64,000 nt of DNA from an uncultured Chlamydiae bacterium (lineage in GTDB: Bacteria; Chlamydiota; Chlamydiia; Chlamydiales; Parachlamydiaceae): NCBI GenBank assembly GCA_963754655.1, contig CAVWGN010000001.1:1760001-1824000 (forward strand), given 5' to 3'. How positions within the stretch are numbered: position 1 is the stretch's first letter; each line of letters opens with the position of its first letter. The translations under genes and the position numbers were made by a program. Positions 9,549 through 41,255 of the stretch are shown here, in pieces. The notes below the pieces were generated by a model. It saw nothing but the letters and a program-made list of their open reading frames with translations, was not told the DNA's origin and ran no database searches.

Positions 9549-11405
9549 TTAGATTTGCAAATTGAAAAACCCAGCCATTTTGCTGAAAACGGTAGCCAAG
9601 ACAACCGTTAGATCCTTTTTAAAATTTTCATCTACATATTCAAAAGCCATGCCATCCTGATTAACGGCGGCCAAGACAATCTCTCGATCTTTTTTAAGGC
9701 TTTCATCTGCATATCGAAGAGCCTTGCCATTTTGCTTAACGGCAGCCAAAACAATGTCTCGATCTGTTTTAAAACTTTCATTTACATATTTAAGAACTCG
9801 ACCATCTTGCTGAACAGCAGCTAGCACAATTTCTCGATCTTTTGTAAGGCTTTCATCTACATATTGAAGAGTCCTGCCATTTTGCTTAACGGCAGCCAAG
9901 ACAATCTCTCGATTTTTTTTAAAATTTTCATCTGCATATTGAAGAGACTCCCCATCTTCTTGAACGGCGGTCAAGACAATCTCTTGATCTTTTTTAAGGC
10001 TTTCATTTGCATATTCAAGGGTCCAGCCATTTTGCTGAACAGCAGTCAAGACAATCTCTCTATCTTTTTTAAGGCTTTTGTCTGCAAATAGAAGAGCCTC
10101 GGCATTTTTCTGAACGGCAGCTAAAACAATCTCTCGATCTTGTTTAAAGCTTTTATCTGCATAGACAAGAGCTGTGCCAGTTTCCTTAACGGCAGCTAAG
10201 ACAATCTCTCGATCTTTTTTAAGGCTTTCATTTGCATATTGAAGAGCACTGCCATTTTGCTTAACGGCAGCCCAGACAATCTCTCGATCTTTTCTAAAAC
10301 TTTCATCTGCGTATTGAAGCACCGATCCTCTTAGCTGAACACAAGCCAAGACAATCTCTCGATCTTTTTTACAGCTTTCATTTGCATATTGAAGAGCGCT
10401 GCCATCTTCCTGAACAGCAACTAAGACAATCTCTCGATCTTTTTTAAGGCTTTCATCTGCATATTCAAGAGCCAAGCCATCTTGCTGAACGGCAGCCAAA
10501 ACAATGTCTCGATCTTTTTTAAAGTTTTCATCTGCATATTGAAGAACCTGGCCATCTTGCTGAATAGCAGTCAAGACAATCTCTCGATCTTTTTTAAAGC
10601 TTTCATCTGCAACTATAAAAGCTTTGCCATCTTTCTGAACGGTAGCCAGGATAAACTCTCGATCTTTTTTAAGGCTTTCATCTATATCAAAAACAGAACG
10701 TCCAAAACAGCGAGCAACTTGCATAATTTTTTGTTTATCATTAAAATTGGGAAATTTTTTAAAGGTAGAAATGACTGATTCGTTTGCTAGCTGCCATATT
10801 GGATTGTTTCGGCCACCCAGGTAAAGTTTTGCGATAAAATCATTTTTGATCAATATTAGCCTTTGATCGTCAGTGCCCCATACAAGAGAGTTTAAAATAG
10901 ACAATTGTTCTTCGGCCACTCGCCCGATATTCTTATTGGCGCTGATTTTGCAACCTTGAGGGTCCCATACATAATGATTTAAAAGAGAAAGAAATAAACT
11001 GTTAGCGCAAAATAAAGGTGATTGAACCATTAACAATTTTCTAAAACTTTCTCCGAAGGAACCGTGTTGGGCTCGATCGATCAACTTAAGTTCCTGCGAG
11101 GTAAAATCCTTCTTTTGTTCAGTTGCAAGACATTCTGGAGGAGTATTAATAGAGGATTGAGGACTCTTTTTCAACTGAAAAAGAGTCTGCGCCAAGGAGA
11201 TACAAGGATTCTTCTCAACAACTCTTTTCCATCTTGTACAAGTAAGTAAAACAGAAAAAATATCACTTAAAAGTGGCATTTTTTGATTGACAACCCGATC
11301 AAAAAAAATTTCCAATACCTCATCAGGAAGGATATTGTTTAAGCAAACTTCATTTAAATTGGTTTGCATTTCTTGTAAATTAACGAGCGTAAGTTGCATA
11401 AACAT
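9549..11405 (-). CDS. F-box-like + DUF4116-like 25-aa repeat protein (14 repeats + cap)
   Basis: LPDEVLEIFF...LLTCTRWKRV motif, then DREIVLAAVQQDGxALxYADESLKK repeats. Confidence 0.85.
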   Translation of the reverse strand: MFMQLTLVNLQEMQTNLNEVCLNNILPDEVLEIFFDRVVNQKMPLLSDIFSVLLTCTRWKRVVEKNPCISLAQTLFQLKKSPQSSINTPPECLATEQKKDFTSQELKLIDRAQHGSFGESFRKLLMVQSPLFCANSLFLSLLNHYVWDPQGCKISANKNIGRVAEEQLSILNSLVWGTDDQRLILIKNDFIAKLYLGGRNNPIWQLANESVISTFKKFPNFNDKQKIMQVARCFGRSVFDIDESLKKDREFILATVQKDGKAFIVADESFKKDREIVLTAIQQDGQVLQYADENFKKDRDIVLAAVQQDGLALEYADESLKKDREIVLVAVQEDGSALQYANESCKKDREIVLACVQLRGSVLQYADESFRKDREIVWAAVKQNGSALQYANESLKKDREIVLAAVKETGTALVYADKSFKQDREIVLAAVQKNAEALLFADKSLKKDREIVLTAVQQNGWTLEYANESLKKDQEIVLTAVQEDGESLQYADENFKKNREIVLAAVKQNGRTLQYVDESLTKDREIVLAAVQQDGRVLKYVNESFKTDRDIVLAAVKQNGKALRYADESLKKDREIVLAAVNQDGMAFEYVDENFKKDLTVVLATVFSKMAGFFNLQI

Positions 11406-11500
11406 CTTTTAATTAAATTGATTATTATAGTAATCAAATCTATAAATTTAATTTTTATTGCTAATTTATAAATTTTAATTTTATAAAGTTTAATTTTATA

Positions 11501-11529
11501 ATTCTAAAATTATAAGCCATTTATTGCAA
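11501..11529 (-). promoter_or_regulatory. sigma66/70-type promoter TTGCAA-N17-TAGAAT
   Basis: Position and 17-bp spacing are conserved upstream of most array paralogs. Confidence 0.6.
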
Positions 11530-11641: not shown

Positions 11642-13498
11642 TCATTTGATTTGAAAATTTAGATCTGCAAATTGAAAAAGCCTGTCGACCTTCCTGATAA
11701 CGGTAGCCAAGACAAATTCTTGATCTTTTTTAAAGCTTTCATCTGCATATTCAAGAGCTCGACCATCTTGCTTAACGGCAGTCAAGACAATGTCTCGATC
11801 TTTTTTAAGACTATCATCTGCATATTGAAGAGCCCAGCCATGTTGCTGAACGACATTCATGACAATATCTCGATCTTTTTTAAGGCTTTCATCTGCAAAT
11901 TTAAGAGCATAGCCATATTGCTTAACGGCAGCCAAGACAATGTGTCGATCTTTTTTAAGACTATCATCTGCAAATTGAAGAGCCGAGCCATGTTGCTGAA
12001 CGACAGTCATGACAATGTCATGATCTTTTTTAAAACTTTTATCTGCAAATTGAAGAGACCCGCCATTTTCCTTAACGGCAGCCAAGACAATCTCTCGATC
12101 TTTTTTAAGGCTTTCATCTGCATATTCAAAAACCAGGCCACTTTGCTGAACAGCAGCTAGGACAATCTCTCGCTCTTTTTTAAATTTTTCATCTGCATAT
12201 TGAAGAGCCAAGCCACTTTGCTGAACAGCAGCTAGGACAATCTCTCGCTCTTTTTTAAAGTTTTCATCTGCAAATTGAAGAGCATAGCCATTTTGCCGAA
12301 CAGCAGCTAGGACCATCTCTCGCTCTTTTTTAAAGTTTTCATCTGCAAATTGAAGAGCATAGCCATTTTGCCGAACAGCAGCTAGGACCATCTCTCGATC
12401 TTTTTTAAGGCTTTCATCTGCATATTTAAGAGCATAGCCATCTTACCGAACAGCAGCCAAGTTAATCTCTCGATCTTTTTTAAAACTTGTATCTGCATAT
12501 TGAAGAGCCAAGCCACTTTGCTGTACGGCAGCCAAGACAATCTCTCGATCTTTTTTAAGGCTTTCATCTGCATATTCAAGAGCATAGCCATGTTTCTGAA
12601 CGGCAGCCAAAACAAACTCTCGATCTTTTTTAAGGCTTTCATCTGCATAGTAAAGAGTATCTCCTCTTTGCTGAACGGCAGCCAAGACAAGGTCTCGGTC
12701 TTTTTTAAGGCTTTCATCTGCATAGTAAAGAGACCCGCCATCTTGTTGAACGGCAACCAAGACAACCTCTCGATCTTTTTTAAGACTTTCATCAAAAAGA
12801 GAATATCCAAAACAGCGAGCAACTTGTATAAAAATTTTTTTATCTTTAAAATTAGAAAATTTTTTAAGCGTGGAGATGACCGAGTGGCTTGCTCGGTACC
12901 ATATGATAGAGTCTCGACCAGCTGCGTAAAGTTTTGCGATAAAATCGTTTTTGATCATCATGAGTCTTTGATCGTCCGTGCCCCATACAAGAGAGTTTAA
13001 AATAGACCATTGCTTTTCAGCCACTTGCCGGATGTTATCATTGGCGCTAGTTTTACAACGTTGCGGATTCCATGAATAGCGATCCAAAAGAGAAAGAAAT
13101 AAACTGTTAGGGCAAAATAAAGGTGATTGAATCATTAACAATTTTTCAAATTTTGCTCCATTGCTGCTGCCGTGATCAATCAATTTAAGTTCTTGAGATG
13201 TAAAAGACTTCTTGTGCTCAGGTGCGATATATTCTCGGAGAGGATGAATAGAAGATTGAGGACTCTTTTTAAGTTGAAAAAGAGTCTGCGCCAAGGAGAT
13301 ACAAGGATTGTTTTCAAGAACTCTTTTCCATCTTGTACAAGTGAATAAAATAGAAGAAATATCACCTAAAAGTAGACTTTCTTGATTAATAACCCGATCA
13401 AAAAAAACTTCTAGTATCTCATCAGGAAGTAGGGTGTTTAAACAAACTTCGTTTGCCATGGTTTGCACGGCTTGTGAATTAATGAACGTAAGTTGCAT
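11642..13498 (-). pseudogene. F-box/DUF4116 paralog with an in-frame nonsense codon
   Basis: ORFs 12443-13498 and 11642-12391 share a frame; TAA at 12443-12445 replaces the consensus CAA. Confidence 0.85.
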
Positions 13499-13945: not shown

Positions 13946-15637
13946 TTAGATCTGCAAATTGAAAAGCCCCTTCCTCTTACTGGAAGCGATAGCCAAGACA
14001 ATCTCTTGATCTTTTCTAAGGCTTTTATGTGCATATTGAAGAGCCAAGCCATCTTGCTGAACGGCAGCCAAGACAATCTCTCGATCTTTTCTAAAGTTTA
14101 GAGCATATTCAAGAGCTTTGCCATTTTGCTGAACAGCAGCCAAGACAATCTGTCGATCTTTTGTAAGGCTATCATCTGTGAATCTAAAAGCTTTGCCATC
14201 TTGCTGAACGGCAGCTAAGACAATTTGTCGATCTTTTTTAAGGCTTTTATCTGCATATTTAAGAGCCCGGCCATTTTTCTGAACGGCAGCCAAGACAAAC
14301 TCTCGATCTTTTTTAAGGCTATCATCTGCGAATCTAAAAGCTTTGCCATCTTGCTGAACGGCAGCCAAGACAATCTGTCGATCTTTTTTAAAGCTTTCAT
14401 CTGCATATTCACGAGCATCGGCAGTTCGTTTAACGGCTGCTAAGACAATCTCTCGATTTTTTTTAAGGCTTACATCTGCATATTTAAGAGCCCAACCATT
14501 TTGCTGAACGGCAGTCAAGACAATTTCTTGATCTTTTTTAAAGCTTTTATCTACATATTCAAGAGCACAGCCTCTTTGCTGAACGGCAGCCAAGACAAAT
14601 TCTCGATTCTTTCGAAGGCTTTCATCTGCATATTGAAGAGCATCAGCTCTTTGCTGAACGGCAGCCAAGACAATGTCTTGATCTTTTTTAAAGCTTTCAT
14701 CTGCATATTGAAGAGCCCAGCCATATTGCTTAACGGCAGTCAAGATAATCCCTCGATCTTTTTTAAGGCTTTCATCTGCATATTTAAGAGCATCAGCTCT
14801 TTGCTGAACGGCCGCTAAGACAATTTCTCGATCTTTTTTAAGAGTTTCATCTGCATATTCAAGAGCCCAGCCATGTTGCTTAACGGCAGCCAAGACAATC
14901 TCTCGATCTTTTTTAAAGCTTTCATCTATATCAAAAACAGAAGCTCCAAAACAGCGAGCAACTTGAATAAAAAATTTTTTATCGTTAAGATTGCGAAATT
15001 TTTTAAGCATGAAGATGATCGAATCTATTGTCCGGTCCCATATGTCATAGTCGCTACCACCCACGTAAAGTTTTGCGATAAAATCATTTTTGATCATCAT
15101 GAGTCTTTGATCATCAGTGCCCCATACAAAAGAATTTAAAATAGACAATTGCCCTTTGGCCACTTGTCCGATATTCTTATTGGCGCTAGTTTTGCAATCT
15201 TGAAGATCCCATCGATAGTGATTCAAAAGAGAAAGAAATAAACTGTCAGCGCAAAATAAAGATGATTGAATCATTAACAATTTTTCAAAACTTTTTCCAT
15301 AACTGCTGGCTCGATCAATCAACCTAAGTTCTTGAAATGTAAAAGACTTCTTTTGTTCAGTTGCGAGACATTCTTGGAGAGGATTAGTAGAGGATTGAGG
15401 ACTCTTTTTCAACTTAAAAAGAGCCTGCGCTAAGGAGATGCAAGGATTCTTTTCAAAAACTCTTTTCCATCTTGTACAAGTAAGTAAAATAGAAGAAATA
15501 TCACTTAAAAGTGGGCTTTCTTGATTGACAATCCGATCAAAAAAAATTTCTAATATCTCATCAGGAATTAAAGTGTTTAAGCAAACTTCGTTTGAAATGG
15601 CTTGCATTGCTTGTGAATTAACGAGCGTAAGTTGCAT
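13946..15637 (-). CDS. F-box-like + DUF4116-like repeat protein (KRTADA / ASSKR subclass)
   Basis: IPDEILEIFF...TCTRWKRV followed by repeats; ends IASSKRKGLFNLQI. Confidence 0.85.
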   Translation of the reverse strand: MQLTLVNSQAMQAISNEVCLNTLIPDEILEIFFDRIVNQESPLLSDISSILLTCTRWKRVFEKNPCISLAQALFKLKKSPQSSTNPLQECLATEQKKSFTFQELRLIDRASSYGKSFEKLLMIQSSLFCADSLFLSLLNHYRWDLQDCKTSANKNIGQVAKGQLSILNSFVWGTDDQRLMMIKNDFIAKLYVGGSDYDIWDRTIDSIIFMLKKFRNLNDKKFFIQVARCFGASVFDIDESFKKDREIVLAAVKQHGWALEYADETLKKDREIVLAAVQQRADALKYADESLKKDRGIILTAVKQYGWALQYADESFKKDQDIVLAAVQQRADALQYADESLRKNREFVLAAVQQRGCALEYVDKSFKKDQEIVLTAVQQNGWALKYADVSLKKNREIVLAAVKRTADAREYADESFKKDRQIVLAAVQQDGKAFRFADDSLKKDREFVLAAVQKNGRALKYADKSLKKDRQIVLAAVQQDGKAFRFTDDSLTKDRQIVLAAVQQNGKALEYALNFRKDREIVLAAVQQDGLALQYAHKSLRKDQEIVLAIASSKRKGLFNLQI

Positions 15638-16081: not shown

Positions 16082-18949
16082 ATGATTACAGAGATTCAAA
16101 ATAATTTTATTAATTTAGATTATCTTTATACATCTTTAGTAAAAAACCCTCCTGATCAAAATAAATTGGAGGAGAGAATTGATAGAATTAGAAGAGTTTT
16201 ATTTCAACTTAAATCTGCTCTTTCTCCTTTTACAATGGCTTTTGCAAAGGAATGGGCTCCTATTTTGGAGGGGTTAAGTGGGCGCATCGAGACATTCAAG
16301 GCAGGAAATCATAAGGTTACGCAATTAATAGATGAGATTTTTAATCTAAAGGTTGAGATAGACAGGGCGCCTTTGCAAGAAAATCAGACTATCTATCGAT
16401 CAAAAATTGATTTTAAATGGATGATATTTCTCGATATGGATTTTCCTGATGACAGCGGCAGTCTTTGCAGAAGTATTGCCTATTACTTCGATCGGAAAGT
16501 CCCTTTGATTACCACCCGCTCTATCTTGAGTGCTCATCATATTGATGATGAGAAGACGAGAATAGCCATTCGGAAAGAGTTAGAAGCAGCAGTATTTAGA
16601 GCTCATAGCGAATGGACCATCTATCAGCAATATGATCCTAAATACGGCAATGAGCTAATTGTCTTTTTACCCAAAAGATTTAATCAAGAGAATCTTGAAT
16701 CTTTCGATCTTGCTGCTGACGGATCTTTAACAATCATTTCTGCTTTAGAAGCTTTTCAAGAACCTGAAAGAAAAGCCTCTATAGAAGCCTTTTACAATCT
16801 TTTTTCAACAAGCCCTAAACTGAACGCAGTGGCTTTTTGGGAAGGGCATGGATTGCCTAATCGCGTAGGGGGATTATTTGCGCACAACGTTTTAAATACT
16901 CTGGATTTTTTTAAAAGGCAAAAATTTAAAGGTGTAGTTGTTAGTTCTTGCTATTTTGGCGGGGAATCCTCTTTGATTCCTTTATCTAAAAGAGAGCCGG
17001 TTTTTGCATTTAATCAAAATCGACTTGACATGCGTTCTTTTCCAATCATTATGCGATCCATTGGGGATTTTGAGGTATATGGGGGACAAGCAGCCGAAAA
17101 AAACATCGATCTGTTTCTAGATGAATTTGCGATTTTTTTAGAGAACGAGGATCAGACTCTTTCAAAATTGCGCCATGTCTTTAACCGATTAGAAAAAGGA
17201 TTCGAAACAAAACATCCTTTTAACTTGGCTAAAGTGAACTTTATCCACACGAGTCATAGCGCGGAAGGGTTTAGGCCAATAGGAGAATCCAATCAGGGGG
17301 AATCTTTGACTTATGTTGCCGCCAAGAGAAACCAGCTTTTTGCCTCTCTATTGTCAATCAATAAAACATATCTCCACCTTCACCCTCAGGTCGTTTCTGC
17401 TTCTATAGAATGGAATAGCTTAGATTGTATTTTGCATTCAATGATTCCGGGAAATGGCCGACATTTGCTGCGCTCGCTGAAACTTTCTTCGATCTCAGCG
17501 GAAGATTTTATCAAAAAAATGCGTGTGGCTTATGATGATTTTGATCATCTTAAACTAGCTTGCAAGGGATTTTTCATTGGATCTCTTCAATCAAAAATTG
17601 ATTGGGACAATAATTTGAGCGAAGTTATTATTTATACTTTTCCATTTAGTAAAACGAGATGTATCTATCGAAAAAAAGAAAAGTATTATCTGACAGACGG
17701 AGAAACGACTTGCCCTCTGACTCCCTTTCAACATGCTCTCTATGTTAAAGAGGTGGAAAGAAGAACGCGGCCTAAAGCAGAAGCTCTTCGCCTATCCACA
17801 GGAGGGCAAGAGGAGATAGAGGACTTTGAAGATGCATTAAGAAGTCTAACCTTTTATCTTGAGGAATCCCAGTCTTTAAAATGCTTGCTTGATTTTGAAA
17901 CGACGACTAAAACACCCCAGAGTCTTAAGAAATGGGTGGATGCCTATCCCCTGGCAGTGGATGACAAAGTCCAGCTGGTTTTGGCATTAGAAGAAATGAA
18001 GTTCTTCGATCTTTCTCTTCAACTTTATCAAGAAATGCACTTCGATGGGAATGCAAAAAATTTCAGTCGCATTCCCTTTATCATTTTGGCATCCATGAAT
18101 GAAAATCTTCCCTTAGTAAAAGAGTTGATCAAGCAAAAAGTGAATATTAATGTCATGAATGCTTTAGATGACTTAAACTCGCCTATGCATTATGCCTGTT
18201 TATCCAAAAATCCTGATCTTTTGGATGCTCTCCTTGATAGCGAAGAAATTGACTGGAAATTAAAAAATTTTGATCCAACAAATAAAAAAGGCCGCGGCTG
18301 GACTGCACTTTCTTTCACTTTACCCGATAAAATTCCTTTTTTGGTTAAAATCCTCGAGAAGAAGGGATGCGAATTGCTTGCTGATCCATTGGGACAGTGC
18401 TTAAAAGAAGTGGTATCCTACTATTCGTTAGAAAAATTAAAGGTTTTGCTAACTATACTAAAAGCTGCAAAAATCGTAAATGGCGATTTTCTCAAGAGTG
18501 TTTTCCAGCACAATAATTGGAATCTATTTAAGATATTGACGGATAAAGTTGAAGTTGTGACTGAAGGCAAAGAAGAAAATCAAATTCTTTCTTTCGGAAT
18601 AAGATATGCAGCCCTTTATAGTTCAGCAAAAGTTTTTAAAGAGCTATTGGCTAAATATAAAAATGATCTGAGGGTTGATGAAGGTTTAAAATATGCGTTC
18701 TTTTCAGGAAGCCGGGAAAAAATTGAAGCGATCAAAGGCTGGCAAATTCATTTTAACAAGGAAGATCACCCTTTATTAGATCTTCTTTTTTCACGTTATG
18801 AAGCATTGGAGGACTTTGAGCAAATAAAGGCTTTGCGTCATTGGAACACAGTTCCATCGCCGGTTCTCGAGAAGTTTATAGTTGACAGGTATAGTCTTCG
18901 CCGCTTGGTTTTATCCAGAAGTGATCATTTAGCTTCTGTTCCACTCTAA
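16082..18949 (+). CDS. large putative effector: caspase-fold-like HG...SC segment plus C-terminal ankyrin repeats
   Basis: AFWEGHG...VVVSSCYFGG; ankyrin-like LVKELIKQKVNIN, SPMHYAC and GWTAL. Confidence 0.7.
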   Translation: MITEIQNNFINLDYLYTSLVKNPPDQNKLEERIDRIRRVLFQLKSALSPFTMAFAKEWAPILEGLSGRIETFKAGNHKVTQLIDEIFNLKVEIDRAPLQENQTIYRSKIDFKWMIFLDMDFPDDSGSLCRSIAYYFDRKVPLITTRSILSAHHIDDEKTRIAIRKELEAAVFRAHSEWTIYQQYDPKYGNELIVFLPKRFNQENLESFDLAADGSLTIISALEAFQEPERKASIEAFYNLFSTSPKLNAVAFWEGHGLPNRVGGLFAHNVLNTLDFFKRQKFKGVVVSSCYFGGESSLIPLSKREPVFAFNQNRLDMRSFPIIMRSIGDFEVYGGQAAEKNIDLFLDEFAIFLENEDQTLSKLRHVFNRLEKGFETKHPFNLAKVNFIHTSHSAEGFRPIGESNQGESLTYVAAKRNQLFASLLSINKTYLHLHPQVVSASIEWNSLDCILHSMIPGNGRHLLRSLKLSSISAEDFIKKMRVAYDDFDHLKLACKGFFIGSLQSKIDWDNNLSEVIIYTFPFSKTRCIYRKKEKYYLTDGETTCPLTPFQHALYVKEVERRTRPKAEALRLSTGGQEEIEDFEDALRSLTFYLEESQSLKCLLDFETTTKTPQSLKKWVDAYPLAVDDKVQLVLALEEMKFFDLSLQLYQEMHFDGNAKNFSRIPFIILASMNENLPLVKELIKQKVNINVMNALDDLNSPMHYACLSKNPDLLDALLDSEEIDWKLKNFDPTNKKGRGWTALSFTLPDKIPFLVKILEKKGCELLADPLGQCLKEVVSYYSLEKLKVLLTILKAAKIVNGDFLKSVFQHNNWNLFKILTDKVEVVTEGKEENQILSFGIRYAALYSSAKVFKELLAKYKNDLRVDEGLKYAFFSGSREKIEAIKGWQIHFNKEDHPLLDLLFSRYEALEDFEQIKALRHWNTVPSPVLEKFIVDRYSLRRLVLSRSDHLASVPL

Positions 18950-29224: not shown

Positions 29225-31003
29225 TTACATCTGCAAATTGAAAAGCCCAACCATCTTATTGAAAACAGTGGCCAAGACAAACTCTCGATCTTGTTTAAAA
29301 CTCTCGTCTGCATATTCAAGAGCCCACCAACATTGCTGGACGGCAGCCAAGACAATCTCTCGATCTTTTTGAAGGCTTTCATCTGCATATTTAAGAGCCC
29401 AGCCGTCTTGCTTAACGGCAGCCAAGACAAACTCTCGATCTTTTTTAAGGCTTTCATCTGCATGGAGAAAAGCATTGCCAGTTTGCTTAACGGCAGCCAA
29501 GACAATCTCTCGATCTTTTTTAAGGCTTTCATCTGCATAACAAAGAGCATAACCACTTTGCTTAACGGCAGCCAAGATAATCCCTCGATCTTTTTTAAAA
29601 CTTTCATCTGCAAATTGAAGAGCGTTACCTCTTTGTTGGACTGCAGCTAAAACAATGTCTCGATCTTTTTTTAAACTTTCATCCGCATATTCAAGAGCTT
29701 TGCCTTTTTGCTGAACAGCAGCCAAGACAATCTCTCGATCTTTTTTAAAACTTTCATCTGCATATTCAAGAGCCCACCCACATTGCTGAACGGCAGCCAA
29801 GACAAACTCACGATCTTTTTTAAGGCTTTCATCTGCATATTCAAGAGCTAAGGCATTTTTCTCAATGGCAGACAAGATAATCTTTCGATCTTTTTTAAAG
29901 CTTTTATCTGCATAGTCAAGACCGCAGCCAGTTTGCTTAATGATAGCCAAGACAAACTCTTGATCTTTTTTAAGACTTTCATCTGCATATTCAAGAGCAT
30001 AGCTATGTTGCTGAACGGCAGCCAGGACAATCTCTCGATCTTTTTTAAAGCTTTCATCTGCACATTCAAGAAACAAGCCATCTCGCTGAACGGCAGCCAA
30101 GATAATCTCTCGATCTTTTTTAAAGCTTGCATCTGCATATTTAAGAGCTCTACCATATTGCTGAACGGCAGCCAAGACAATCTCTCGATCTTTTTTAAGA
30201 CTTTCATCTGCATATTGAAGAGCTTGACCCTCTCGCTGAACGGCAGCTAAAACAATGTCTCGATCTTTTTTAAAGCTTTCATCTATATCAAAAACAGAAT
30301 GTCCAAAACAGCGAGCCACTTGCATAAGTTTTTTTTTATCATTAAAATTGGGAAAATTTTTAAGTGTAGAGATAACCGATTCTCTTGCCACCAGCCATAT
30401 TGAATCTTCAACACCCAGGTAAAGTTTTGCAATAAAATCCTTGTTGATCATCATTAATCTTTGGTCGTCAGTGCCCCATGCAAGAGAGTTTAAAATAGAC
30501 AGTTGCTTTTCAGCCACTTGCCGGATGTTTTGATTGGCGCTATTTTTGCAAACTCGAAGCTCCCATGGATAGCGATCCAAAAGAGAAAGAAATAAACTGT
30601 TAGTGCAAAACAACTGAGATTTAACCATTAACAATTTTCTAAAAATTTCTTCGTAGGAGCTTTGTTGGGCTCGATCAATCAACTTAAGTTCTTGAGATGT
30701 AAAATCCTTCTTTTGTTCAGTTGCGATACATTGTCGGGGAAAATTAATAGGGGCTTGGGGACTCTTTTTCAATTGAAAAAGACTCTGAGCCAAGGAGATG
30801 CAAGGATTGTTCTCAAGAACTCTTTTCCATCTTGCGCACGTGAGTAAAATAGAATAAATATCACCTAAAAGCGGCCTTTTTTGATTAACAACCCGATCAA
30901 AAAAAATTTCTAATAATTCATCAGGAAATAAATTGTTTATGCAAACTTCGTTTGAAGTAGTTTGCATTCCTTGTGAATTAATGAGCGTAATTTGCATAAA
31001 CAT
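29225..31003 (-). CDS. F-box-like + DUF4116-like repeat protein
   Basis: 592 aa; recent duplicate of 26543-28465 with fewer repeats. Confidence 0.85.
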   Translation of the reverse strand: MFMQITLINSQGMQTTSNEVCINNLFPDELLEIFFDRVVNQKRPLLGDIYSILLTCARWKRVLENNPCISLAQSLFQLKKSPQAPINFPRQCIATEQKKDFTSQELKLIDRAQQSSYEEIFRKLLMVKSQLFCTNSLFLSLLDRYPWELRVCKNSANQNIRQVAEKQLSILNSLAWGTDDQRLMMINKDFIAKLYLGVEDSIWLVARESVISTLKNFPNFNDKKKLMQVARCFGHSVFDIDESFKKDRDIVLAAVQREGQALQYADESLKKDREIVLAAVQQYGRALKYADASFKKDREIILAAVQRDGLFLECADESFKKDREIVLAAVQQHSYALEYADESLKKDQEFVLAIIKQTGCGLDYADKSFKKDRKIILSAIEKNALALEYADESLKKDREFVLAAVQQCGWALEYADESFKKDREIVLAAVQQKGKALEYADESLKKDRDIVLAAVQQRGNALQFADESFKKDRGIILAAVKQSGYALCYADESLKKDREIVLAAVKQTGNAFLHADESLKKDREFVLAAVKQDGWALKYADESLQKDREIVLAAVQQCWWALEYADESFKQDREFVLATVFNKMVGLFNLQM

Positions 31004-31297: not shown

Positions 31298-33148
31298 TTA
31301 GATCTGTAAATTGAAAAACCCAGCCATCTTACTGAAAACAGTAGCTAAGACAAAGTCTTGATCTTTTTTAAAGCTTTCATCTGCATATTCAAGAGCCCCA
31401 CAATCTTGCTCAACGGCAGTCAAGACAATCTCTCCATCTTTTTTAAGGCTTTCATCTGCATATTCAAGAGCCCAGCCACTTCGCTTAACGGCAGCCAAGA
31501 CAATCTCTCGATCTTTTTTAAGGCTTTCATCCGCATATTGAAGAGCGCCGCCATTTTGCTGAACGGCAACCAAGACAATCTCTCGATCTTTTTTAAGGCT
31601 TTGATCTGCAAATTGAAGAGCCCAGCCATTTTGCTGAACGGCAGCCAAAACCATTTCTCGATCTTTTTTAAAACTTACATCTGGATATTCAAGAGCTATG
31701 CCATCTTGTTTAATGGCAGCCAAAACAACCTCTCGATCTTTTTTAAAGCTTTCATCCGCAAATTGAAGAGCTTTGCCTCTTTGCCGAACAGCAGTCAAGA
31801 CAATCTCTTGATCTTTTTTAAAATTTTCACTTATATATTTAAGATTCCAGCCACTGTGCTGAACGGCAGTCAAGACAATCTCTCGATCTTTTTGAAAGCT
31901 TTCATCCGCATATTCAAGAGCCCCACCAGCTTGCTGAATGGAAATCAAGACAATCTCTCGATCTTTTTTAAGACTTTCATCCGCAACCTTAAGAGCTAAG
32001 CCATCTTGCCGAACAGCAGCCAAGACAATCTCTCGATCTTTTTTAAGATTTTCATCGGCATAGATAAAAGCTAAACCATCTTGCTGAACAGCAGCTAAGA
32101 CAATCTCTCGATCTTTTTTAAAGCTTTCATCCGCATATGCAAGAGCTAAGCCATCTTGCTGAACAGCAGCCAAGACAATCTCTCGATCTTTTTTAAGACT
32201 TTCATCCACATATTCAAGAGCTGAGCCATTTTGCTGAACGGCAGCCAAGACAATCTCTCGATCTTTTTTAAGGCTTTCATCTGCATAGTAAAGAGCTCGG
32301 CCATCCTGCTGAATGGCAACCAGAACAAGGTCTCGATCTTTTTTAAGGCTTTTATCTACATATTCAAGAGCCCGGCCCTTTTGCTGAACGACAGCCAAGA
32401 TAATTTCTCGATCTTTTTTAAAGGTTTCATCTATATCAAAAACAGAATGTCCAAAACAACGAGCAACTTGTATAAAAAATTTTTTCTCGTTAAAAATGGG
32501 AAATTTTTTAAATGTGGAGATGACTGATTGTTTTGCCAGCTGCCATATTGGATTTTTTTGACCACCGGGGTAAAGTTTTGCGATAAAATCATTTTTGATC
32601 ACCCTTAATCTTTGGTCGTCAGTGCCCCATGCAAGAGAGTTTAAAATAGACAATTGCTCTTTAGCTACTTGCTCCATGTTTTGATTGGCGCTGGTTTTGC
32701 AAACTTGAGGATCCCATAGATAGCGATTCAAAAGAGAAAGAAATAAACTATTAGCGCAAAATAAAGTTGAATTAACCATTAACAATTTTCTAAAACTTTC
32801 TCCGTAGTGGTTGTGTTGGACTCGATCGATCAACCTAAGTTCCTGAGAGGTAAAAGACTTCTTTTGGCCAGTTGCGATACATTCTCGGGGAGGATTAATA
32901 GAGGATTGAGGACTCTTATTAAGTTGAAAAAGGGCCTGCGCCAAGGAGATGCAAGGATTCTTTTCAAAAACTCTTTTCCATCTTGTACAAGTGAGTAAAA
33001 TAGAAGAAATATCACTTAAAAGTGTGCTGTTTTGATTAACAACCCGATCAAAAAAAATTTCTAATACTTCATCAGGAAGGATAGTGTTTAAGCACACTTC
33101 GTTTGAAGTGGTTTGAGTTGCTTGTGAATTAACGAGCGTAAATTGCAT
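31298..33148 (-). CDS. F-box-like + DUF4116-like repeat protein
   Basis: Consensus start MQFTLVNSQ at 33148 with AAGGA RBS. Confidence 0.85.
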   Translation of the reverse strand: MQFTLVNSQATQTTSNEVCLNTILPDEVLEIFFDRVVNQNSTLLSDISSILLTCTRWKRVFEKNPCISLAQALFQLNKSPQSSINPPRECIATGQKKSFTSQELRLIDRVQHNHYGESFRKLLMVNSTLFCANSLFLSLLNRYLWDPQVCKTSANQNMEQVAKEQLSILNSLAWGTDDQRLRVIKNDFIAKLYPGGQKNPIWQLAKQSVISTFKKFPIFNEKKFFIQVARCFGHSVFDIDETFKKDREIILAVVQQKGRALEYVDKSLKKDRDLVLVAIQQDGRALYYADESLKKDREIVLAAVQQNGSALEYVDESLKKDREIVLAAVQQDGLALAYADESFKKDREIVLAAVQQDGLAFIYADENLKKDREIVLAAVRQDGLALKVADESLKKDREIVLISIQQAGGALEYADESFQKDREIVLTAVQHSGWNLKYISENFKKDQEIVLTAVRQRGKALQFADESFKKDREVVLAAIKQDGIALEYPDVSFKKDREMVLAAVQQNGWALQFADQSLKKDREIVLVAVQQNGGALQYADESLKKDREIVLAAVKRSGWALEYADESLKKDGEIVLTAVEQDCGALEYADESFKKDQDFVLATVFSKMAGFFNLQI

Positions 33149-33214
33149 AACTATCCTTTGATTCAATTTATAATTTTAATTTTTATTCATAATTTTATAA
33201 TGTTTAATTTTAGA

Positions 33215-33243
33215 ATTATACAAATACAACATATTGATTTCAA
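33215..33243 (-). promoter_or_regulatory. sigma66/70-type promoter TTGAAA-N17-TATAAT
   Basis: Near-consensus; same motif at 36920-36948. Confidence 0.7.
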
Positions 33244-33446: not shown

Positions 33447-35439
33447 TTAGAGTTGGAAATTGAACAGCCCGGCCATCTTACTGATAACAGTAGCTAAGAC
33501 AAAGTCTCGATCTTGTTTAAAACTTTCGTCTGCATATTGAAGAGCCATGCCATCTTGCTGAACGGCAGCTAAGACAATCTCTCGATCTTGTTTAAGACTT
33601 GCATCTGCATCTTTAAGATGCATGGCCATCTTGCTGAACAGCAGCCAAGACAATCTCTCAATCTTTTTCAAGGCTTTTATCGGCATAGGCAAGAGCCTAG
33701 CCACTTTGCTTAACGATAGCCAAGACAATCTCTCGATCTTGTTTAAAGCTTTTATCTGCATATGCAAGAGCTAAGCCATCTTGCTGAACAGCAGCCAAGA
33801 CAATCTCTTGATCTTTTCTAAGGCTTTTATGTACATATTGAAGAGCCAAGCCATCTTGCTGAACGGCAGCCAAGACAATCTCTCGATCTTTTCTAAAGTT
33901 TAGAGCATATTCAAGAGCTTTGCCATTTTGCTGAACAGCACCCAAGATAATCTCTCGATCTTTTTTAAGGCTATCATCTGCGAATCTAAAAGCATTGCCA
34001 TCTTGCTGAATGGCAGCCAAGACAATCTGTCGATCTTTTTTAAGGCTTTTGTCCGAATGTTTAAGAGCCCGGCCGTCTTGTTGAACGGCAGCCAAGACAA
34101 ACTCTCGATCTTTTTTAAGGCTATCATCTGCGAATCTAAAAGCTTTTCCATCTTGCTGAATGGCAGCCAAGACAATCTCTCGATTTTTTTTAAAGCTTTT
34201 ATCTGCATATTCAAGAGCATCGGCAGTTCGTTTAACGGCCGCTAAGACAATCTCTCGATTTTTTTTAAGGCTTTCATCTGCATATTTAAGAGCCCAGCCA
34301 TTTTGCTGAACGGCAGTCAAGACAATCTCTCGATCTTTTTTAAAGCTTTCGTCTGTATATTTAAGAGCACCGCCTCTTTGCTGAACAACAGCCAAGACAA
34401 ATTCTCGATTCTTTTGAAGGCTTTCATCTGCATATTGAAGAGCATCGCCTCTTTGCTGAACGGCAGCCAAGACAATGTCTCGATCTTTTTTAAAGCTTTC
34501 ATCTGCGAATCTAAAAGCATTGCCATCTTGCTGAACGGCAGCTAAGACAATCTGTCGATCTTTTTTAAAGCTTTCATCTACATAGTCTAGAGCATTGGCA
34601 GTTCGTTTAACGGCCGCTAAGACGATCCCTCGATCTTTTTTAAGGCTTTCATCTACATATTGAAGAGCATGGCCATTTTCCTGAACGGCAGCCAAGACAA
34701 TCTCTCGATTTTTTTTAAAGCTTTCATCTATATCAAAAACAGAAGCTCCAAAACAGCGAGCAACTTGAATAAAAAAAATTTTATTGTTAAGATTGCGAAA
34801 TTTTTTAAGTGTGGAGATGATCGAATCTCTTGTTCGGTCCCATATGTCATAATAGTCTCTACCACCCACGTAAAGTTTTGCGATAAAATCATTTTTGATC
34901 ATCATGAGTCTTTGTTCGTCAGTGCCCCATACAAGAGAGTTTAAAATAGACAATTGCTCTTTGGCCACTTGCTGGATGTTCTTATTGGCGCTAGTTTTGC
35001 AATCTTGAAGATCCCATCGATAGTGATTCAAAAGAGAAAGAAATAAACTGTCAGCGCAAAATAAAGGTGATTGAATCATTAACAATTTTTCAAAAATTTT
35101 TCCATGACTGCTGGCTCGATCAATCAACTTAAGTTCTTGAGATGTAAAAGACTTCTTTTTAGTTGCGAGACATTCTCGGAGAGGATTAATAGAGAATAGA
35201 GGATTCTTTTTAAGTTGAAAAAGAGTCTGCGCCAAGGAAATGCACGGATTTTTTTCAAAAACTCTTTTCCATCTTGTACAAGTAAGTAAAATAGAAACAA
35301 TATCACTTAAAAGTGGGCTTTCTTGATTGACAATCCGATCAAAAAAAATTTCTAATATCTCATCAGGAAGTAAAGTGTTTAAGCAAACTTCGTTTGAAGT
35401 GGTTTGAATTGCTTGTGAATTAACGAGCGTAAATTGCAT
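33447..35439 (-). pseudogene. F-box/DUF4116 paralog truncated at TAG 33697, with a further stop and frameshift in the tail
   Basis: ORF 33697-35439 ends mid-repeat; degenerate repeats and cap continue to 33447. A truncated product could still be made. Confidence 0.7.
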
Positions 35440-35836: not shown

Positions 35837-36847
35837 TTAGATCTGAAAATTGAAAAGCCCAGCCATCTTACTGAAAACATTAGCTAAAACAAATTCTCGA
35901 CCTTTTTTAAAGCTTTCATCTGCATATTCAAGAGCCTCACAATCTTGCTCAACGGCAGCCAAGACAATCTCTCGATCTTTTTTAAGACTTTCATCTGCAT
36001 AGTAAAGAGCTCGACCATCCTGCTGAATGGCAACCAAAACAAGGTCTCGATCTTTTTTAAGGCTTTTATGTACATATTCAAGGGCTTTACCGTCTTGCTG
36101 AAGAGCAGCCAAGATAATTTCTCTCTTTTTTAAAGCTTTCATCTATATCAAAAACAGAATGTCCAAAACAACGAGCAACTTGTATAAAAATTTTTTTCTC
36201 GTTAAAAATGGGAAATTTTTTAAATGTGGAGATGACTGATTGTTGTGCCAGGTGCCATATTGGATTTTTTTGACCACCTGGGTAAAGTTTTGCGATAAAA
36301 TCATTTTTGATCACCCTTAATCTTTGGTCGTCGGTGCCCCATGCAAGAGAGTTTAAAATAGACAACTGCTCTTCAGCCACTTGCCGGATGTTTTGATTGG
36401 CGCTGGTTTTGCAAACTTGAGGATCCCATAGATAGCAATTTAAAAGAGAAAGAAATAAACTGTTAGTGCAAAATAAAGGTGAGTTAACCATTAACAATTT
36501 TCTAAAACTGCCTCTGTAGTAGTGGTTGTGGGCTCGATCGATCAACCTAAGTTCCTGAGAGGTAAAAGACTTCTTTTGGCCAGTTGCGACACATTCTCGG
36601 GGAGGATTAATAGAGGGTTGAGGACTCTTATTAAGTTGAAAAAGGGTCTGCGCCAAGGAGATGCAAGGATTCTTTTCCATCTTGTACAAGTAAGCAAAAT
36701 AGAAGAAATATCACTTAAAAGTGTTCTGTTTTGATTAACAACCCGATCAAAAAAAATTTCTAATACTTCATCAGGAAGGATAGTGTTTAAGCACACTTCG
36801 TTTGAAGTGGTTTGAGTTGCTTGTGAATTAACGAGCGTAAATTGCAT
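35837..36847 (-). pseudogene. degraded paralog of 31298-33148 (two frameshifts, most repeats deleted)
   Basis: Split among ORFs 36542-36865, 36087-36689 and 35837-36142. Confidence 0.85.
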
Positions 36848-37105
36848 AACTATCCTTCGATTCAATTTATAATTTTATTTTTTATCTTTATTCATAATTT
36901 TATATTTTTTAAGTTTAGAATTATACAAATACAAAATATTGATTTCAACTAGACATTTCAATATAAATAAAAAAAAATTTAACAAAACTAGTTTTTTTTC
37001 TAATAAAATTGTAATACTATAACCGCTTCTTTTAATTTTTTTTGAAAGCAACTTTAAAATTTAACGCCACCTCTCGAGTCTTATACTCCAAATTTGGGGA
37101 TAAAG

Positions 37106-37582: not shown

Positions 37583-39235
37583 TTAGATCTGCAAATTGAA
37601 AAGCCCCTCCCTCTTACTAGAAGCGATAGCCAAGACAATCTCTTAATCTTTTCTAAGGCTTTTATGTGCATATTTAAGAACCCAGCGATTTTGCTGAACG
37701 GCAGCCAAGACAATCTGTGGATCTTTTTTAAGGCTTTTATCTGCATATTCAAGAGCTTTGCCATTTTGCTTAACAGCAGCCAAGACAATCTCTCGATCTT
37801 TTTTAAGGCTTTCCTCTGCATATCGAAGAGTATTGCCATTTTTCTGAACGGCAGCCAAGATAATCTCTCGATCTTTTCTAAAACCTTTATCTGCATGTTT
37901 AAGAGCCTCGCCATCTTGTTGAACAACAGCCAAGACAAACTCTCGATCTTTTTTAAGGCTTTCATCTGCGAATCTAAAAGCTTTGCCATCTTGTTGAACG
38001 ACAGCCCGGACAAACTCTCGATCTTTTTTAAGGCTTTGATCTGCGAATCTAAAAGCTTTGCCATCTTGTTGAACGACAGCCCGAACAAACTCTCGATCTT
38101 TTTTAAGGCTTTGATCTGCATATTCAAAAGCATCGGCAGTTCGTTTAATGGCGGCTAAGACAATCTCTCGATCTTTTTTAAGGCTTTTATCTGCATGTTT
38201 AAGAGCCTGGCCAATTTGCTGAACGGCAGCTAAGACAATCTCTCGATCTTTTTTAAGGCTTTTATCTGCATAGTGAATAGCCCAGCCATTTTGCTTAACA
38301 GCCGCCAAGACAAGGTCTTGATCTTTTTTTAAGCTTTCATCTGCATATAGAAGAGCTCGACCATCTTGCTGAATAGCAGCCAAAACCACCTCTCGATCTT
38401 TTTCGAGGTTTTCATCTGCATATTCAAGAGCTCTACCATTTTGCTGAACGGCAACCAAGACAATCTCTCGATCTTTTTTAAAGCTTTCATTTATATCAAA
38501 AACAGAAGCTCCGAAACAGCGAGCAACTTGAATAAAAATTTTTTTATCGTTAAGCTTGGGAAATTTTTTAAGGGTAGAGATGGCTGATTCTCTTGCCCGG
38601 TCCCATATCACTAGTCGATCATTTACCACTCCTTGACCACCCACGTAAAGTTTTAAGATAAAATCATTTTTGATCATTATTAATCTTTGATCGTCATTAC
38701 CATATACAAGAGAGTTTAACATAGATAGTTGTTCTTCGGCCACTTGCTGGATATTCTTATTGGCACTAGTTTTACAAACTTGTGGATCCCATGAATAGTA
38801 ATCCAAAAGAGAAAGAAATAAACTGTTAGCACAAAATAAACTTGATTGAACCATTAACAATTTTCTAAAACTTTCTCCATAGAAGTAGGGATGGAGTTGG
38901 ACTTGGGCTCGATCGATCAACTGAAGTTCCTGAGAGGTAAAAGACTTCTTTTGATCAGTTATGACACATTCGAGGGGAAACGTAATAGGTGATTGAGGGC
39001 TCTTTGTAAGTTGAAAAAGAGTCTGCGCCACTGAGAGGCAAGGATTCTTTTCAAAAACTCTTTTCCATCTTTTACAAGTGACTAAAATAGAAGAAATATC
39101 ACTTACAAGTGGCCTTTTTTGATTGACAACCCGATCAAAAAAAATTTCTAATATCTCATCAGGAAGGATGGTGTTTAAGCAAACTTCGTTTGAAGTGGTT
39201 TGCATTGCTTGTGAATTAAGGGGCGTAAGTTGCAT
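37583..39235 (-). CDS. F-box-like + DUF4116-like repeat protein (ASSKR subclass); premature TAA at 37643 removes the cap
   Basis: 530-aa ORF; cap sequence continues in frame to TAA at 37583. Confidence 0.75.
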
Positions 39236-39344
39236 AAATATTCTTTAATTAAATTTATATATTTTAATTTTTATTCGTGATTCTATAATAATAGATCAGA
39301 TTTTTAATCTAAAGGTTGAAATAGACAGAACACCTTTGCAAGAT

Positions 39345-41255
39345 TTAGATCTGCAAATTGAACAGCCCGGCCATCTTACTGATAACAGTAGCTAAGACAA
39401 AGTCTCGATCTTGTTTAAAACTTTCGTCTGCATATTGAAGAGCCATGCTATCTTGCTGAACGGCAGCTAAGACAATCTCTTGATCTTGTTTAAGACTTGC
39501 ATCTGCATATTCAAGAGCACGGCCATTTTGCTGAACGACTGCCAAGACAAACCCTCGATCTTTTTGAAGGCTTTCATCTGCATAGAGAAAAGCAATGCCA
39601 TCTTGCTGAACAGCAGCCAAGACAATCTCTTGATCTTGTTTAAGACTTGCATCTGCATATTCAAGAGCTTTGCCATTTTGCTGAACGGCAGCCAAGACAA
39701 TCTCTCGATCTTGTTTAAAGCTTTTATCTGCATATTGAAGCGCATAGCCATTTTGCTGAACAGCAGCTAAGACAATCTCTCGATCTTTTTTAAGGCTTTC
39801 ATCTACATCTTGAAGAGCCCAACCAGTTTGCTTAACGGCAGTTAAGACAACTTCTCGATCTTTTTTAAAACTTTCATCTGCATATTTAAGAACCCCACCA
39901 CTTTGCTGAACGGCAGCCAAGATAATCTCTCGATCTTTTTTAAAACTTTCATTTGCAAATTTAAGAGCTACGCCATTTTTCTGAATGGCAGCCAAGACAA
40001 TCTCTCGATCTTTTTTAAAACTTTCATCTGCAAATTGAAAAATCTCGACATTTTTCTGAATGGCAGCCAAGAGAATCTTTCGATCTTTTTTAAAGCTTTC
40101 ATCTGCATATTCAGGAGCCCAGTGACTGATAGCCAAGACAAACTCTTGATCTTTTTTAAGACTTTCATCTGCATAGTAAAAAGCATAGCCATTTCGCTGA
40201 ACGGCAGCTAAGACAATCTCTCGATCTTTTTTAAGGCTTTCATCTACATGTTGAAGAGCATAGCCATGCTGAACGGCAGCCAAGACAATCTCTCGATCTT
40301 TTTTAAGGCTTTCATCTGCATTGTAAAGAGCGTTATAGCCATCGTGCTGAACGGCCGCCATGACAATTTCTCGATCTTTTTTAAGACTTTCATCTGCATA
40401 TTGAAGAGCACCTCCTGTTTGCTGAACGGCAGCCAAGACAATCTCTCGATCTTTTTTAAGGCTTTCATCTGCATATTCAAGAGCTTCGCCCTTTTGCTGA
40501 ACGGCAGCTAAAACAATCTCTCGATCTTTTTTAAGACTTTCATCTATAGCAAAAATAAAATGCCCAAAACAGCGAGCCAGTTGTATAAGTTTTTTTTTAT
40601 CTTTAAAGTTGGGAAATTTTTTAAGTGTGGAGATAACCGATCTGATTACCAGCCGCCATATTTGATCTCCACTACATAGGTAAAGTTTTGCAATAAAATC
40701 ATTGTTAATCATCATTAATCTTTGGTCGTCAGTGCCCCATATAAGAGAGCTTAAAATAGACAATTGTTCTTCGGCCACTTGCCGGATGTTTTGATTGGCG
40801 CTGGTTTTGCAATGTTGCGGATTCCATGAATAGTGATTCAAAAGCGAAAGAAATAAACTGTTAGCGCCAAATAAAGGTGAATTAAGCATTAACAATTTTT
40901 TAAAACTTTCCCCATAGGAGCCTTGTTGGGCTCGATCGATTAACTTAAGTTCTTGAGATGTAAAATTCTTCTTTTCAGTCGCGAGAAATTCTCGGAGAGA
41001 ATTAATAGAGGATTGAGGACTCTTTTTAAGTTGAAAAAGACTCTGAGCCAAGGAGACGCAAGGATTCTTCTCAAGAACTCTTTTCCATCTTTTACAGGTG
41101 AATAAAATAGAAGAAATATCACCTAAAAGTGGCTTTTTTTGATTGACAACCCGATCAAAAAAAACTTCTAATACTTCATCAGGAAGTAAATTATTTAGGC
41201 AAACTTCGTTCGAAGTGGTTTGTATTCCTTGTGAATTAACGGGCGTAATGTGCAT
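39345..41255 (-). CDS. F-box-like + DUF4116-like repeat protein
   Basis: 636 aa; promoter TTGTAA-N17-TATAAT at 41278-41306. Confidence 0.85.
   Translation of the reverse strand: MHITPVNSQGIQTTSNEVCLNNLLPDEVLEVFFDRVVNQKKPLLGDISSILFTCKRWKRVLEKNPCVSLAQSLFQLKKSPQSSINSLREFLATEKKNFTSQELKLIDRAQQGSYGESFKKLLMLNSPLFGANSLFLSLLNHYSWNPQHCKTSANQNIRQVAEEQLSILSSLIWGTDDQRLMMINNDFIAKLYLCSGDQIWRLVIRSVISTLKKFPNFKDKKKLIQLARCFGHFIFAIDESLKKDREIVLAAVQQKGEALEYADESLKKDREIVLAAVQQTGGALQYADESLKKDREIVMAAVQHDGYNALYNADESLKKDREIVLAAVQHGYALQHVDESLKKDREIVLAAVQRNGYAFYYADESLKKDQEFVLAISHWAPEYADESFKKDRKILLAAIQKNVEIFQFADESFKKDREIVLAAIQKNGVALKFANESFKKDREIILAAVQQSGGVLKYADESFKKDREVVLTAVKQTGWALQDVDESLKKDREIVLAAVQQNGYALQYADKSFKQDREIVLAAVQQNGKALEYADASLKQDQEIVLAAVQQDGIAFLYADESLQKDRGFVLAVVQQNGRALEYADASLKQDQEIVLAAVQQDSMALQYADESFKQDRDFVLATVISKMAGLFNLQI

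Follow-up and report, generated by a model that had tools for sequence, protein, structure and literature searches.

A large chlamydial protein family joining an F-box-like head to DUF4116 repeats with three hypervariable positions

Introduction

What kind of proteins are encoded by a run of co-oriented repeat genes in the genome of an uncultured Chlamydiae bacterium of the Parachlamydiaceae, and what might their variable repeats bind? The genes lie in a 64,000-nucleotide stretch of DNA, hereafter the window (GenBank assembly GCA_963754655.1, contig CAVWGN010000001.1, positions 1,760,001 to 1,824,000; coordinates below count from its first letter). Expanded effector families related to ubiquitination, NEX1, NEX2 and PEX1, are known from the Parachlamydiaceae, and the parts of the same paper drawn on here also mention lineage-specific F-box expansions (Domman et al. 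2014, PMC4209131). A preliminary description of the window, made from the letters alone, read positions 9549-41255 as a local library of F-box proteins with hypervariable 25-aa repeats. The listing of open reading frames (ORFs) bore out its 12 co-oriented loci, all on the minus strand between 9549 and 41255, and a thirteenth on the plus strand at 56827-58104. The scope was too narrow, however: about 90 members of the family are spread through the genome, and the window contains only one of their clusters. Every member opens with a polar leader and an F-box-like motif, continues with a helical linker of about 175 aa and then carries 2-17 copies of the 25-aa DUF4116 repeat. With moderate confidence, we propose that these proteins are secreted adaptors of the Skp1-cullin-F-box (SCF) type with a diversifying binding stripe, amplified in this lineage and directed at the host.

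Results

The repeats are DUF4116 units predicted to form a solenoid

The preliminary description had likened the repeats to DUF4116, and Pfam agreed: PF13475 (DUF4116) matched 13 of the 16 window proteins scanned, at E 1e-45 to 8e-219 and 150-708 bits (gathering score 24.9), far outside what chance would produce. The three proteins without a DUF4116 match were an ankyrin protein, an ORF of an insertion sequence (IS) and a head-only fragment. Genome-wide, at least 200 DUF4116 matches were found, compared with none in any of 14 control genomes. At the DNA level, Tandem Repeats Finder (TRF) reported 75-nt arrays of 11.5-18.5 copies (score 950-1615) in each full window member. The register of the encoded repeat is D1 R2 E3 I4 V5 L6 A7 A8 V9 K/Q10 Q11 X12 G13 Y14 A15 L16 Z17 Y18 A19 D20 E21 S22 L/F23 K24 K25, in which X12, Y14 and Z17 denote the variable positions.

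In the full-length AlphaFold model of a representative member (26543-28465), the 15 repeats form an alpha-solenoid of three helices per repeat, with predicted local distance difference test (pLDDT) values above 90. DSSP assigned a helix to residues 2-11 of each repeat, a break to residue 12, and short helices to residues 13-18 and 21-25. The solved folds nearest to the full model were designed helical repeats, armadillo, HEAT and importins (best Foldseek E 1.4e-3). An alpha-solenoid had already been predicted for DUF4116 (Bassot and Elofsson 2021, PMC8078820), and that prediction is reproduced here. Relative to the available text of PMC8078820, our analysis adds the joining of DUF4116 to F-box, PARP, DUF294/SidM-like and leucine-rich repeat (LRR) heads, as well as a hypervariable stripe. 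No function for DUF4116 was proposed in the portions of the literature returned by a full-text search, and no title among those listed dealt with chlamydiae.

Three positions of each repeat are hypervariable

The claim of three variable positions on a nearly fixed scaffold proved robust. Among 161 window repeats, entropy at positions 12, 14 and 17 was 2.75, 3.75 and 2.87 bits, with every other position at or below 1.56; among 995 in-register repeats genome-wide, the corresponding values were 2.77, 3.84 and 2.96, with the other 22 positions at or below 1.68. All residues that the preliminary description had listed for X, Y and Z were seen, but the free variation it described applies only to position 14, where all 20 residues are used, W, L, Y and R foremost. 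Position 12 is 74% N/D/S/T, a composition that fits a helix-capping role, and position 17 is mainly Q/E/K/R. Altogether, the 995 repeats carry 432 distinct X/Y/Z triplets. Position 14 was also the most variable in all four related genomes whose sampled loci supplied 30 or more distinct repeats.

According to the DSSP register, positions 14 and 17 lie one helical turn apart on a short helix, and position 12 immediately precedes that helix. Because the repeats stack, the three positions would be set in a continuous band along the solenoid, judging from this register only.

We estimated nonsynonymous (dN) and synonymous (dS) rates by the Nei-Gojobori method in two differently built pair sets. For 786 nearest-neighbour repeat pairs, dN over pooled dS was 1.48, 2.30 and 2.02 at positions 12, 14 and 17, and 0.60 elsewhere. 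For 28 disjoint gene pairs, picked on head identity only and globally aligned, the ratios were 1.88, 3.73 and 2.40, with bootstrap 95% intervals of 1.55-2.27, 3.18-4.46 and 2.01-2.86 that all exclude 1, against 0.53 at the other positions; omega for the head was 0.44. The head and the scaffold are thus under purifying selection.

Several points weigh against reading these contrasts as positive selection. When each site was given its own dS, the 28 pairs yielded dN/dS of 1.74, 0.85 and 1.15 at positions 12, 14 and 17; synonymous rates vary widely among codons, and path averaging inflates dS at multi-hit codons. Moreover, repeat misalignment or gene conversion could inflate the dN/dS contrast. 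The elevated rates that the preliminary description had looked to were therefore recovered with pooled dS but not consistently with the sites' own dS, and positive selection is unproven because of the latter ratios. The rates are compatible with diversifying selection acting on a purified scaffold.

The family grows by local duplication and repeat turnover

We built Hidden Markov Models (HMMs) of the head and the repeat from the window copies and ran them over the genome (3.12 Mb plus 35 kb, 38.8% G+C), taking in every ORF of 50 aa or more. The head HMM matched 110 ORFs and the repeat HMM 114. Full-length-like members, defined by a complete head and at least two repeats, numbered 87; they carry 2-17 repeats (median 10), and 86 have a recognisable Met start. 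Family ORFs total 158,163 bp, or 5.0% of the genome, and are spread over 16 genomic clusters, the window cluster being among the largest. Only one DUF4116 protein encoded here departs clearly from this plan, with an N-terminus that resembles a membrane anchor; one more has a very divergent head. Separately, clusters of similar-sized ORFs with weak F-box-like matches lie elsewhere in the genome (G000:C1:2072206-2083655, 2326261-2342955 and 2511847-2527755), which suggests additional expanded families.

On a quick maximum-likelihood tree of 86 heads, members of the same genomic cluster grouped strongly together (21 label changes, where shuffling gave a mean of 59.6 and none of 200 shuffles came as low). 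Eleven array members fell into one clade (Shimodaira-Hasegawa-like approximate likelihood-ratio test, SH-aLRT, 100) together with members of clusters at 0.72, 1.07 and 1.67 Mb; the plus-strand member at 56827 fell outside it.

The most recent events are legible in the DNA. Along most of the alignment, the duplicates 26543-28465 and 29225-30997 show 0-6 mismatches per 75 nt; two one-repeat gaps also separate them, and the first 75 nt, with 14 mismatches, are far more divergent. As the preliminary description had stated, paralogs differ in repeat number, and they do so by whole 75-nt units; the order of X/Y/Z triplets is different in part and collinear in part. Its further claim of recombination fits the whole-repeat insertions and deletions and the mosaic structure of other paralog pairs, in which blocks with 1-3 mismatches adjoin blocks with 12-16. 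For 491 of 995 repeats, the closest DNA relative lay in another cluster; for 162, it sat in a neighbouring gene but at another rank. These patterns suggest exchange between paralogs, and no more than suggest it since 75-nt units hold little signal. Overall, the family grows by local tandem duplication, gain and loss of whole repeats, and decay.

Such turnover raises the alternative that the expansion is mostly non-adaptive: tandem duplicates would arise and be lost by genomic drift in a small isolated population, with positions 12, 14 and 17 simply being the least constrained surface residues. Many copies are broken, truncated or reduced to remnants (this affects 4 of the 12 array loci, and genome-wide 23 of the 110 ORFs matching the head fall short of full-length-like), the genomic clusters group on the tree, and the site-own ratio at position 14 is below 1. 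In addition, the available parts of Domman et al. (PMC4209131) favour drift with purifying selection for NEX and PEX. We nevertheless consider this explanation improbable, as open frames are kept in 86 copies under the constraint seen in head (0.44) and scaffold (0.53), dN exceeds pooled dS at the three positions in both analyses with bootstrap intervals above 1, and W, Y, L and R abound at position 14, which is likewise the most variable in four other genomes.

The head carries a divergent F-box-like motif

The leader is rich in S, T, Q and N, as had been claimed, these residues making up 46% of residues 2-20 against 25% of residues 21-240 in 86 members. We found no signal peptide, hydrophobic signal or membrane segment in family members. 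An alignment of 55 heads, each at least 53% identical to the representative, contained 19 invariant columns, several of them inside the stretch LP.E.L..(F/I)FD...N(6)...SILLTC..W. The most conserved head positions, P25, L29, F33, S49, L51, C54 and W57, all lie within the stretch that aligns to F-boxes. When the heads were scanned singly, PF12937 matched 40 of 55 at E<=1 (best 2e-4) and PF00646 matched 15, constantly at residues ~24-61, whereas any other Pfam family matched at most three. Three members, all outside the window, reached the Pfam F-box cut-off, with 26.1, 25.7 and 24.4 bits.

Profile-profile comparison pointed to the same region. The hhalign target was an alignment of 11 Pfam-detected F-box segments of other proteins, nine from this genome and two from relatives. 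An 80-aa profile of 49 family N-termini aligned to it at 90.7% probability (E 1.3e-6, 38 columns, residues 23-66), and the whole 240-aa head profile picked the same region at 63.2% (E 6.9e-5, residues 19-66). Against single F-box + DUF4116 proteins, the head profile aligned over only 15 columns with that of related genome G027 (0.9%) and not at all with that of G025; against a protein of related genome G011, it aligned at 44% over 116 columns (E 2.3e-4). In a protein atlas, the nearest clusters were giant-virus F-box proteins at 0.82-0.84, under the 0.9 level and therefore a lead only.

A number of results tell against a genuine F-box. No window member reached the Pfam F-box cut-off (representative, 13.5 bits against 24.3), and the match spans profile positions ~1-38 of 47 with a 6-residue insertion. 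Residues 1-100 stayed at pLDDT below 50 in both AlphaFold models, including the helices drawn at 26-37, 45-52 and 55-62 of the F-box-like region, so that the AlphaFold check proposed in the preliminary description came out clearly for the repeats but not for this stretch. The head profile had no match at E<=10 among PDB sequences (hmmsearch), and the head model had none at E<=0.001 in Foldseek. A wide search with VIA-align peaked at Z 6.2 over residues 157-232, a score no better than noise where helical proteins are concerned; a chain of the SLY1-ASK1 complex appeared in the fold search at Z 4.0, also noise level. The linker was confidently modelled from about 130 to 240 as helices leading into the solenoid, matched no Pfam family and gave fold matches at noise level only. 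The F-box named in the preliminary description therefore stands as a profile-level resemblance, mostly sub-threshold and without a confident fold or PDB match; the motif is best termed F-box-like, and homology to F-boxes is likely.

The head is rarely found outside this genome, and relatives fit DUF4116 with other heads

The head profile found no match in 40 related genomes, including three of the same genus and 24 of the same family. The congeners stand well apart, at 65-74% identity in flanking housekeeping proteins. In a collection of species-representative genomes, 54 pattern matches yielded no confirmed head. Among 5.8 billion clustered proteins, 38 of 39 head hits belonged to this genome, and among 1.84 billion representatives, 20 clusters matched at E<=0.001, four of which were not from it. 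The foreign relatives of the head total five, all distant and all with DUF4116 repeats; the source of one of them names it as a DUF4116 protein from Candidatus Protochlamydia phocaeensis. Two genes flanking the array lie 365 kb apart in G002 and on separate contigs in G001 and G003, so no empty-site comparison is possible in these three genomes.

Of the 40 relatives, 17 had DUF4116 itself, and two of these gave more than 100 matches each. We scanned 36 DUF4116 proteins from sampled genomes for heads. An F-box or F-box-like head was found in four, all among the six proteins from G025 and G027: one in each genome exceeded the Pfam cut-off, and two in G027 were sub-threshold. The architecture of F-box plus DUF4116 proposed in the preliminary description thus has genuine cases in two related genomes. 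The remaining heads were a PARP catalytic domain (1/36), DUF294 + DUF294_C + SidM_N (1/36) and a weak LRR (1/36); one protein had a membrane anchor, and the rest had no named head. The membrane-anchor-like DUF4116 protein of the genome under study has a counterpart in a congener.

Two very large DUF4116 proteins of related genome G009 (G009:C17, L071; G009:C168, L068) deserve mention in their own right. The longer of the two (1823 aa) carries a PARP catalytic domain at its N-terminus, and the other, of 1438 aa, has DUF294, DUF294_C and a SidM_N-like region. They look like enzymatic effectors with DUF4116 as a targeting module.

These observations bear on the possibility that the family consists of secreted host-binding proteins whose F-box-like motif no longer recruits SCF, the head instead sequestering, scaffolding or relocalising bound host proteins. 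The F-box match falls below threshold and the models leave the motif unfolded; the linker shows the same degree of conservation as the motif, with many residues invariant in all 55 heads, and matches no known family; and the DUF4116 array does not need SCF, because in relatives it bears quite different heads. Nevertheless, we regard loss of SCF recruitment as rather unlikely: the most conserved head residues fall inside the stretch that aligns to genuine F-boxes, three members reach the Pfam cut-off, and clear F-box + DUF4116 proteins exist in related genomes.

A proposed SCF-type adaptor family

On the SCF-adaptor reading, which we favour, the proteins would be exported by a type III system into the host cell. 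Such export is plausible, since the leader is polar and disordered and the secretion system is present: the type III ATPase was found in the genome at 640 bits against a curated cut-off of 604.75. The YscC secretin model gave two matches, both under the cut-off, and HrpJ (PF07201) had no match in the genome or in the controls and is hence uninformative. Among other chlamydiae, NEX and PEX members carry working type III signals, according to the portion of PMC4209131 used here. Once inside the host, the F-box-like motif would dock on host Skp1 and make each protein a substrate receptor of an SCF ubiquitin ligase. The variable stripe along the solenoid would bind a different host protein in each paralog, and the bound protein would be marked for ubiquitination. 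A target-binding role for DUF4116 is suggested by the varied heads together with the defined hypervariable stripe. Among chlamydiae more generally, the DUF4116 array seems to serve as a portable module for targeting, onto which F-box, PARP and nucleotidyltransferase-like heads are fitted.

A more ambitious version, which we offer only tentatively, is that of a natural combinatorial binder library. Here, about 90 SCF-type adaptors would share one scaffold, with specificity held in three positions per repeat. Diversifying selection, the gain and loss of repeats and exchange among paralogs would keep renewing the library, and DUF4116 would be a general evolvable recognition module. Intracellular bacteria, perhaps also amoebae and giant viruses, would attach it to different catalytic heads, and the symbiont would in this way keep pace with changing host or competitor proteins.

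Layout of the array and its open +1 frame

Eight of the 12 array loci have the canonical end, and the remaining four are truncated or broken. The features of the window are as follows.

9549-11405, minus strand: family member, canonical end; 616-618 aa, 14 repeats by HMM and 15.0 by TRF, DUF4116 E 1e-145
11645-13498, minus strand: family member with one in-frame TAA at 12443-12445 (repeat position 11), from ORF listing and TRF
13946-15637, minus strand: family member, canonical end; 563 aa, 12 repeats
19053-20900, minus strand: family member, canonical end; 615 aa counted from the conserved MQLT start, 14 repeats
24118-26040, minus strand: family member, canonical end; 640 aa, 15 repeats
26326-26535, minus strand: remnant of two repeats in another frame, 3' of the stop of member 26543-28465 (TRF array 26362-27752)
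26543-28465, minus strand: representative member, canonical end, used for fold models; 640 aa
28400-28465, minus strand: polar leader of the representative, residues 1-22, by composition (pLDDT 27-40)
28268-28399, minus strand: F-box-like motif of the representative, residues 23-66, by Pfam and hhalign
27734-28267, minus strand: helical linker domain of the representative, residues 67-244, by AlphaFold
26609-27733, minus strand: 15 DUF4116 repeats of 25 aa in the representative, residues 245-619, by Pfam, TRF and AlphaFold
26546-26608, minus strand: C-terminal tail of the representative, residues 620-640, the last repeat continuing in the +1 frame of the repeat DNA
28896-29255, minus strand: remnant of 3-4 repeats in another frame, overlapping or 3' of the end of member 29225-31003 (TRF)
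29225-31003, minus strand: family member, canonical end, recent duplicate of 26543-28465; 590-592 aa, 13 repeats
31298-33166, minus strand: family member, canonical end; 616 aa from the conserved start at 33148, 14 repeats
33450-35439, minus strand: member whose frame ends inside a repeat; ORF 33697-35439, 580 aa, repeats going on in another frame to 33450
35840-36874, minus strand: decayed member with head pieces in two frames, about three repeats and many stops (ORF listing, TRF, HMM)
37643-39235, minus strand: member without a tail, ending just past a repeat boundary; 530 aa, 11 repeats
39345-41255, minus strand: family member, canonical end; 636 aa, 12 clean repeats by HMM and 16.1 copies by TRF
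56827-58104, plus strand: member of another subfamily with a different tail; 425 aa, 6 repeats

In the member with the in-frame TAA, the head and four repeats lie upstream of the stop and ten repeats and the tail downstream in an unchanged frame, the 75-nt array being unbroken over 11699-12793 (TRF).

The +1 frame of the repeat DNA is free of stop codons and translates as IERLSWLPFSKMAGLLNMQMKALKK. The conserved C-terminal tail of the array subfamily (..FSKMAGLFNLQI) is this +1-shifted frame of the last repeat, seen at 26546-26608 in the window and at the ends of 14 of 86 members genome-wide. Other subfamilies end in ..KKIERLS, the same +1 frame entered elsewhere. Because the +1 frame lacks stops, a shift of frame within the array does not cut translation short but yields a long alternative protein.

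Frameshift-prone repeats with an open +1 frame are reminiscent of phase variation, and one may ask whether the proteins instead stay with the bacterium, internally or on its surface, as envelope, developmental-cycle or phase-variable surface proteins, never meeting the host ubiquitin machinery. The own-genome DUF4116 protein with a membrane-anchor-like N-terminus and its congener counterpart would fit such a role. The family members, however, have no signal peptide or membrane segment, their head is F-box-like, and relatives join DUF4116 to the eukaryote-directed heads PARP and SidM_N-like. We therefore judge a purely bacterial role very improbable and retain the host-directed adaptor reading.

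Other elements accompany the array. An ankyrin-repeat gene on the opposite strand (16082-18949, plus strand, 955 aa; Pfam Ank_2, Ank_3, Ank_4) interrupts it and encodes another eukaryote-like candidate for host interaction. An IS-like element at ~21565-23428, with ORFs 21607-22926 and 22995-23303, interrupts it between two members; the first of these ORFs (439 aa) had no Pfam match at E<=0.01. Near the array, a MORN-repeat gene (52895-54715, plus strand, 606 aa, E 1.6e-74) likewise encodes a eukaryote-like repeat protein. Short AT-rich tandem repeats (15-27 nt) lie just upstream of several members (11465-11501, 33167-33217, 36865-36917 and 41461-41502) and may be a shared promoter-region feature co-duplicated with the genes.

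Comparison with known systems

No paper describing the family by title or abstract was found among the literature listed by searches on chlamydial F-box expansions; the supplementary tables of Domman et al. could list DUF4116 proteins. The closest parallels are the NEX and PEX families, as described in the parts of PMC4209131 used here. Both they and the present family combine an N-terminal F-box or F-box-like region (or BTB/RING in NEX/PEX) with a conserved middle and a variable number of C-terminal repeats, and both are presumed type III effectors of amoeba symbionts. NEX and PEX number tens to more than 100 paralogs per genome, in tandem clusters with birth-and-death turnover (PMC4209131). 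The family described here follows that pattern, with its 87 full-length-like members, 16 clusters, grouping on the tree and broken copies.

The differences are equally clear. The repeats here are DUF4116, in contrast to the LRR or tetratricopeptide repeats (TPR) of NEX and PEX, families that also include BTB, RING, DUF294, OTU or CHAT parts (PMC4209131); by Pfam, window members had no LRR, TPR, BTB or CHAT match, only DUF4116 and a weak F-box. For NEX and PEX, no positive selection was reported in the consulted parts of PMC4209131 (global dN/dS 0.29-0.63), whereas three repeat positions here exceed the pooled synonymous rate. The head is also undetected in 40 related genomes. Because its F-box is too divergent, a Pfam-threshold domain census of the kind presented in PMC4209131 would miss nearly all members. 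The family is a variant of the known chlamydial F-box expansions, new in its DUF4116 repeats and divergent head.

What follows from this is, first, that another very large Chlamydiae effector family may lie hidden from Pfam-threshold domain censuses, and that its localised diversification signal contrasts with the purely purifying selection of the published chlamydial expansions. Second, DUF4116 gains a concrete and testable role as a target-binding solenoid with a mapped candidate specificity stripe, and it emerges as a common partner of F-box, PARP and nucleotidyltransferase-like heads in related chlamydiae.

Bacterial F-box effectors that hijack host SCF include Legionella AnkB (F-box + ankyrin), Ralstonia GALA (F-box + LRR) and Agrobacterium VirF. 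These are single genes or small families for which Skp1 binding has been demonstrated. Like them, the present family would place an F-box-like head before a repeat domain that selects the host substrate, a role established there and proposed here. Unlike them, it has about 90 members and a different repeat type, and is known from sequence.

Designed ankyrin repeat proteins and the repeats of transcription activator-like (TAL) effectors combine a near-fixed scaffold with few specificity positions per repeat. The DUF4116 arrays share with both a variable repeat number and the concentration of nearly all variation in a few positions; they have no homology to either, and their recognition code is putative. 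If it is a true binding code, the DUF4116 scaffold could serve, as a natural template, for the design of binders.

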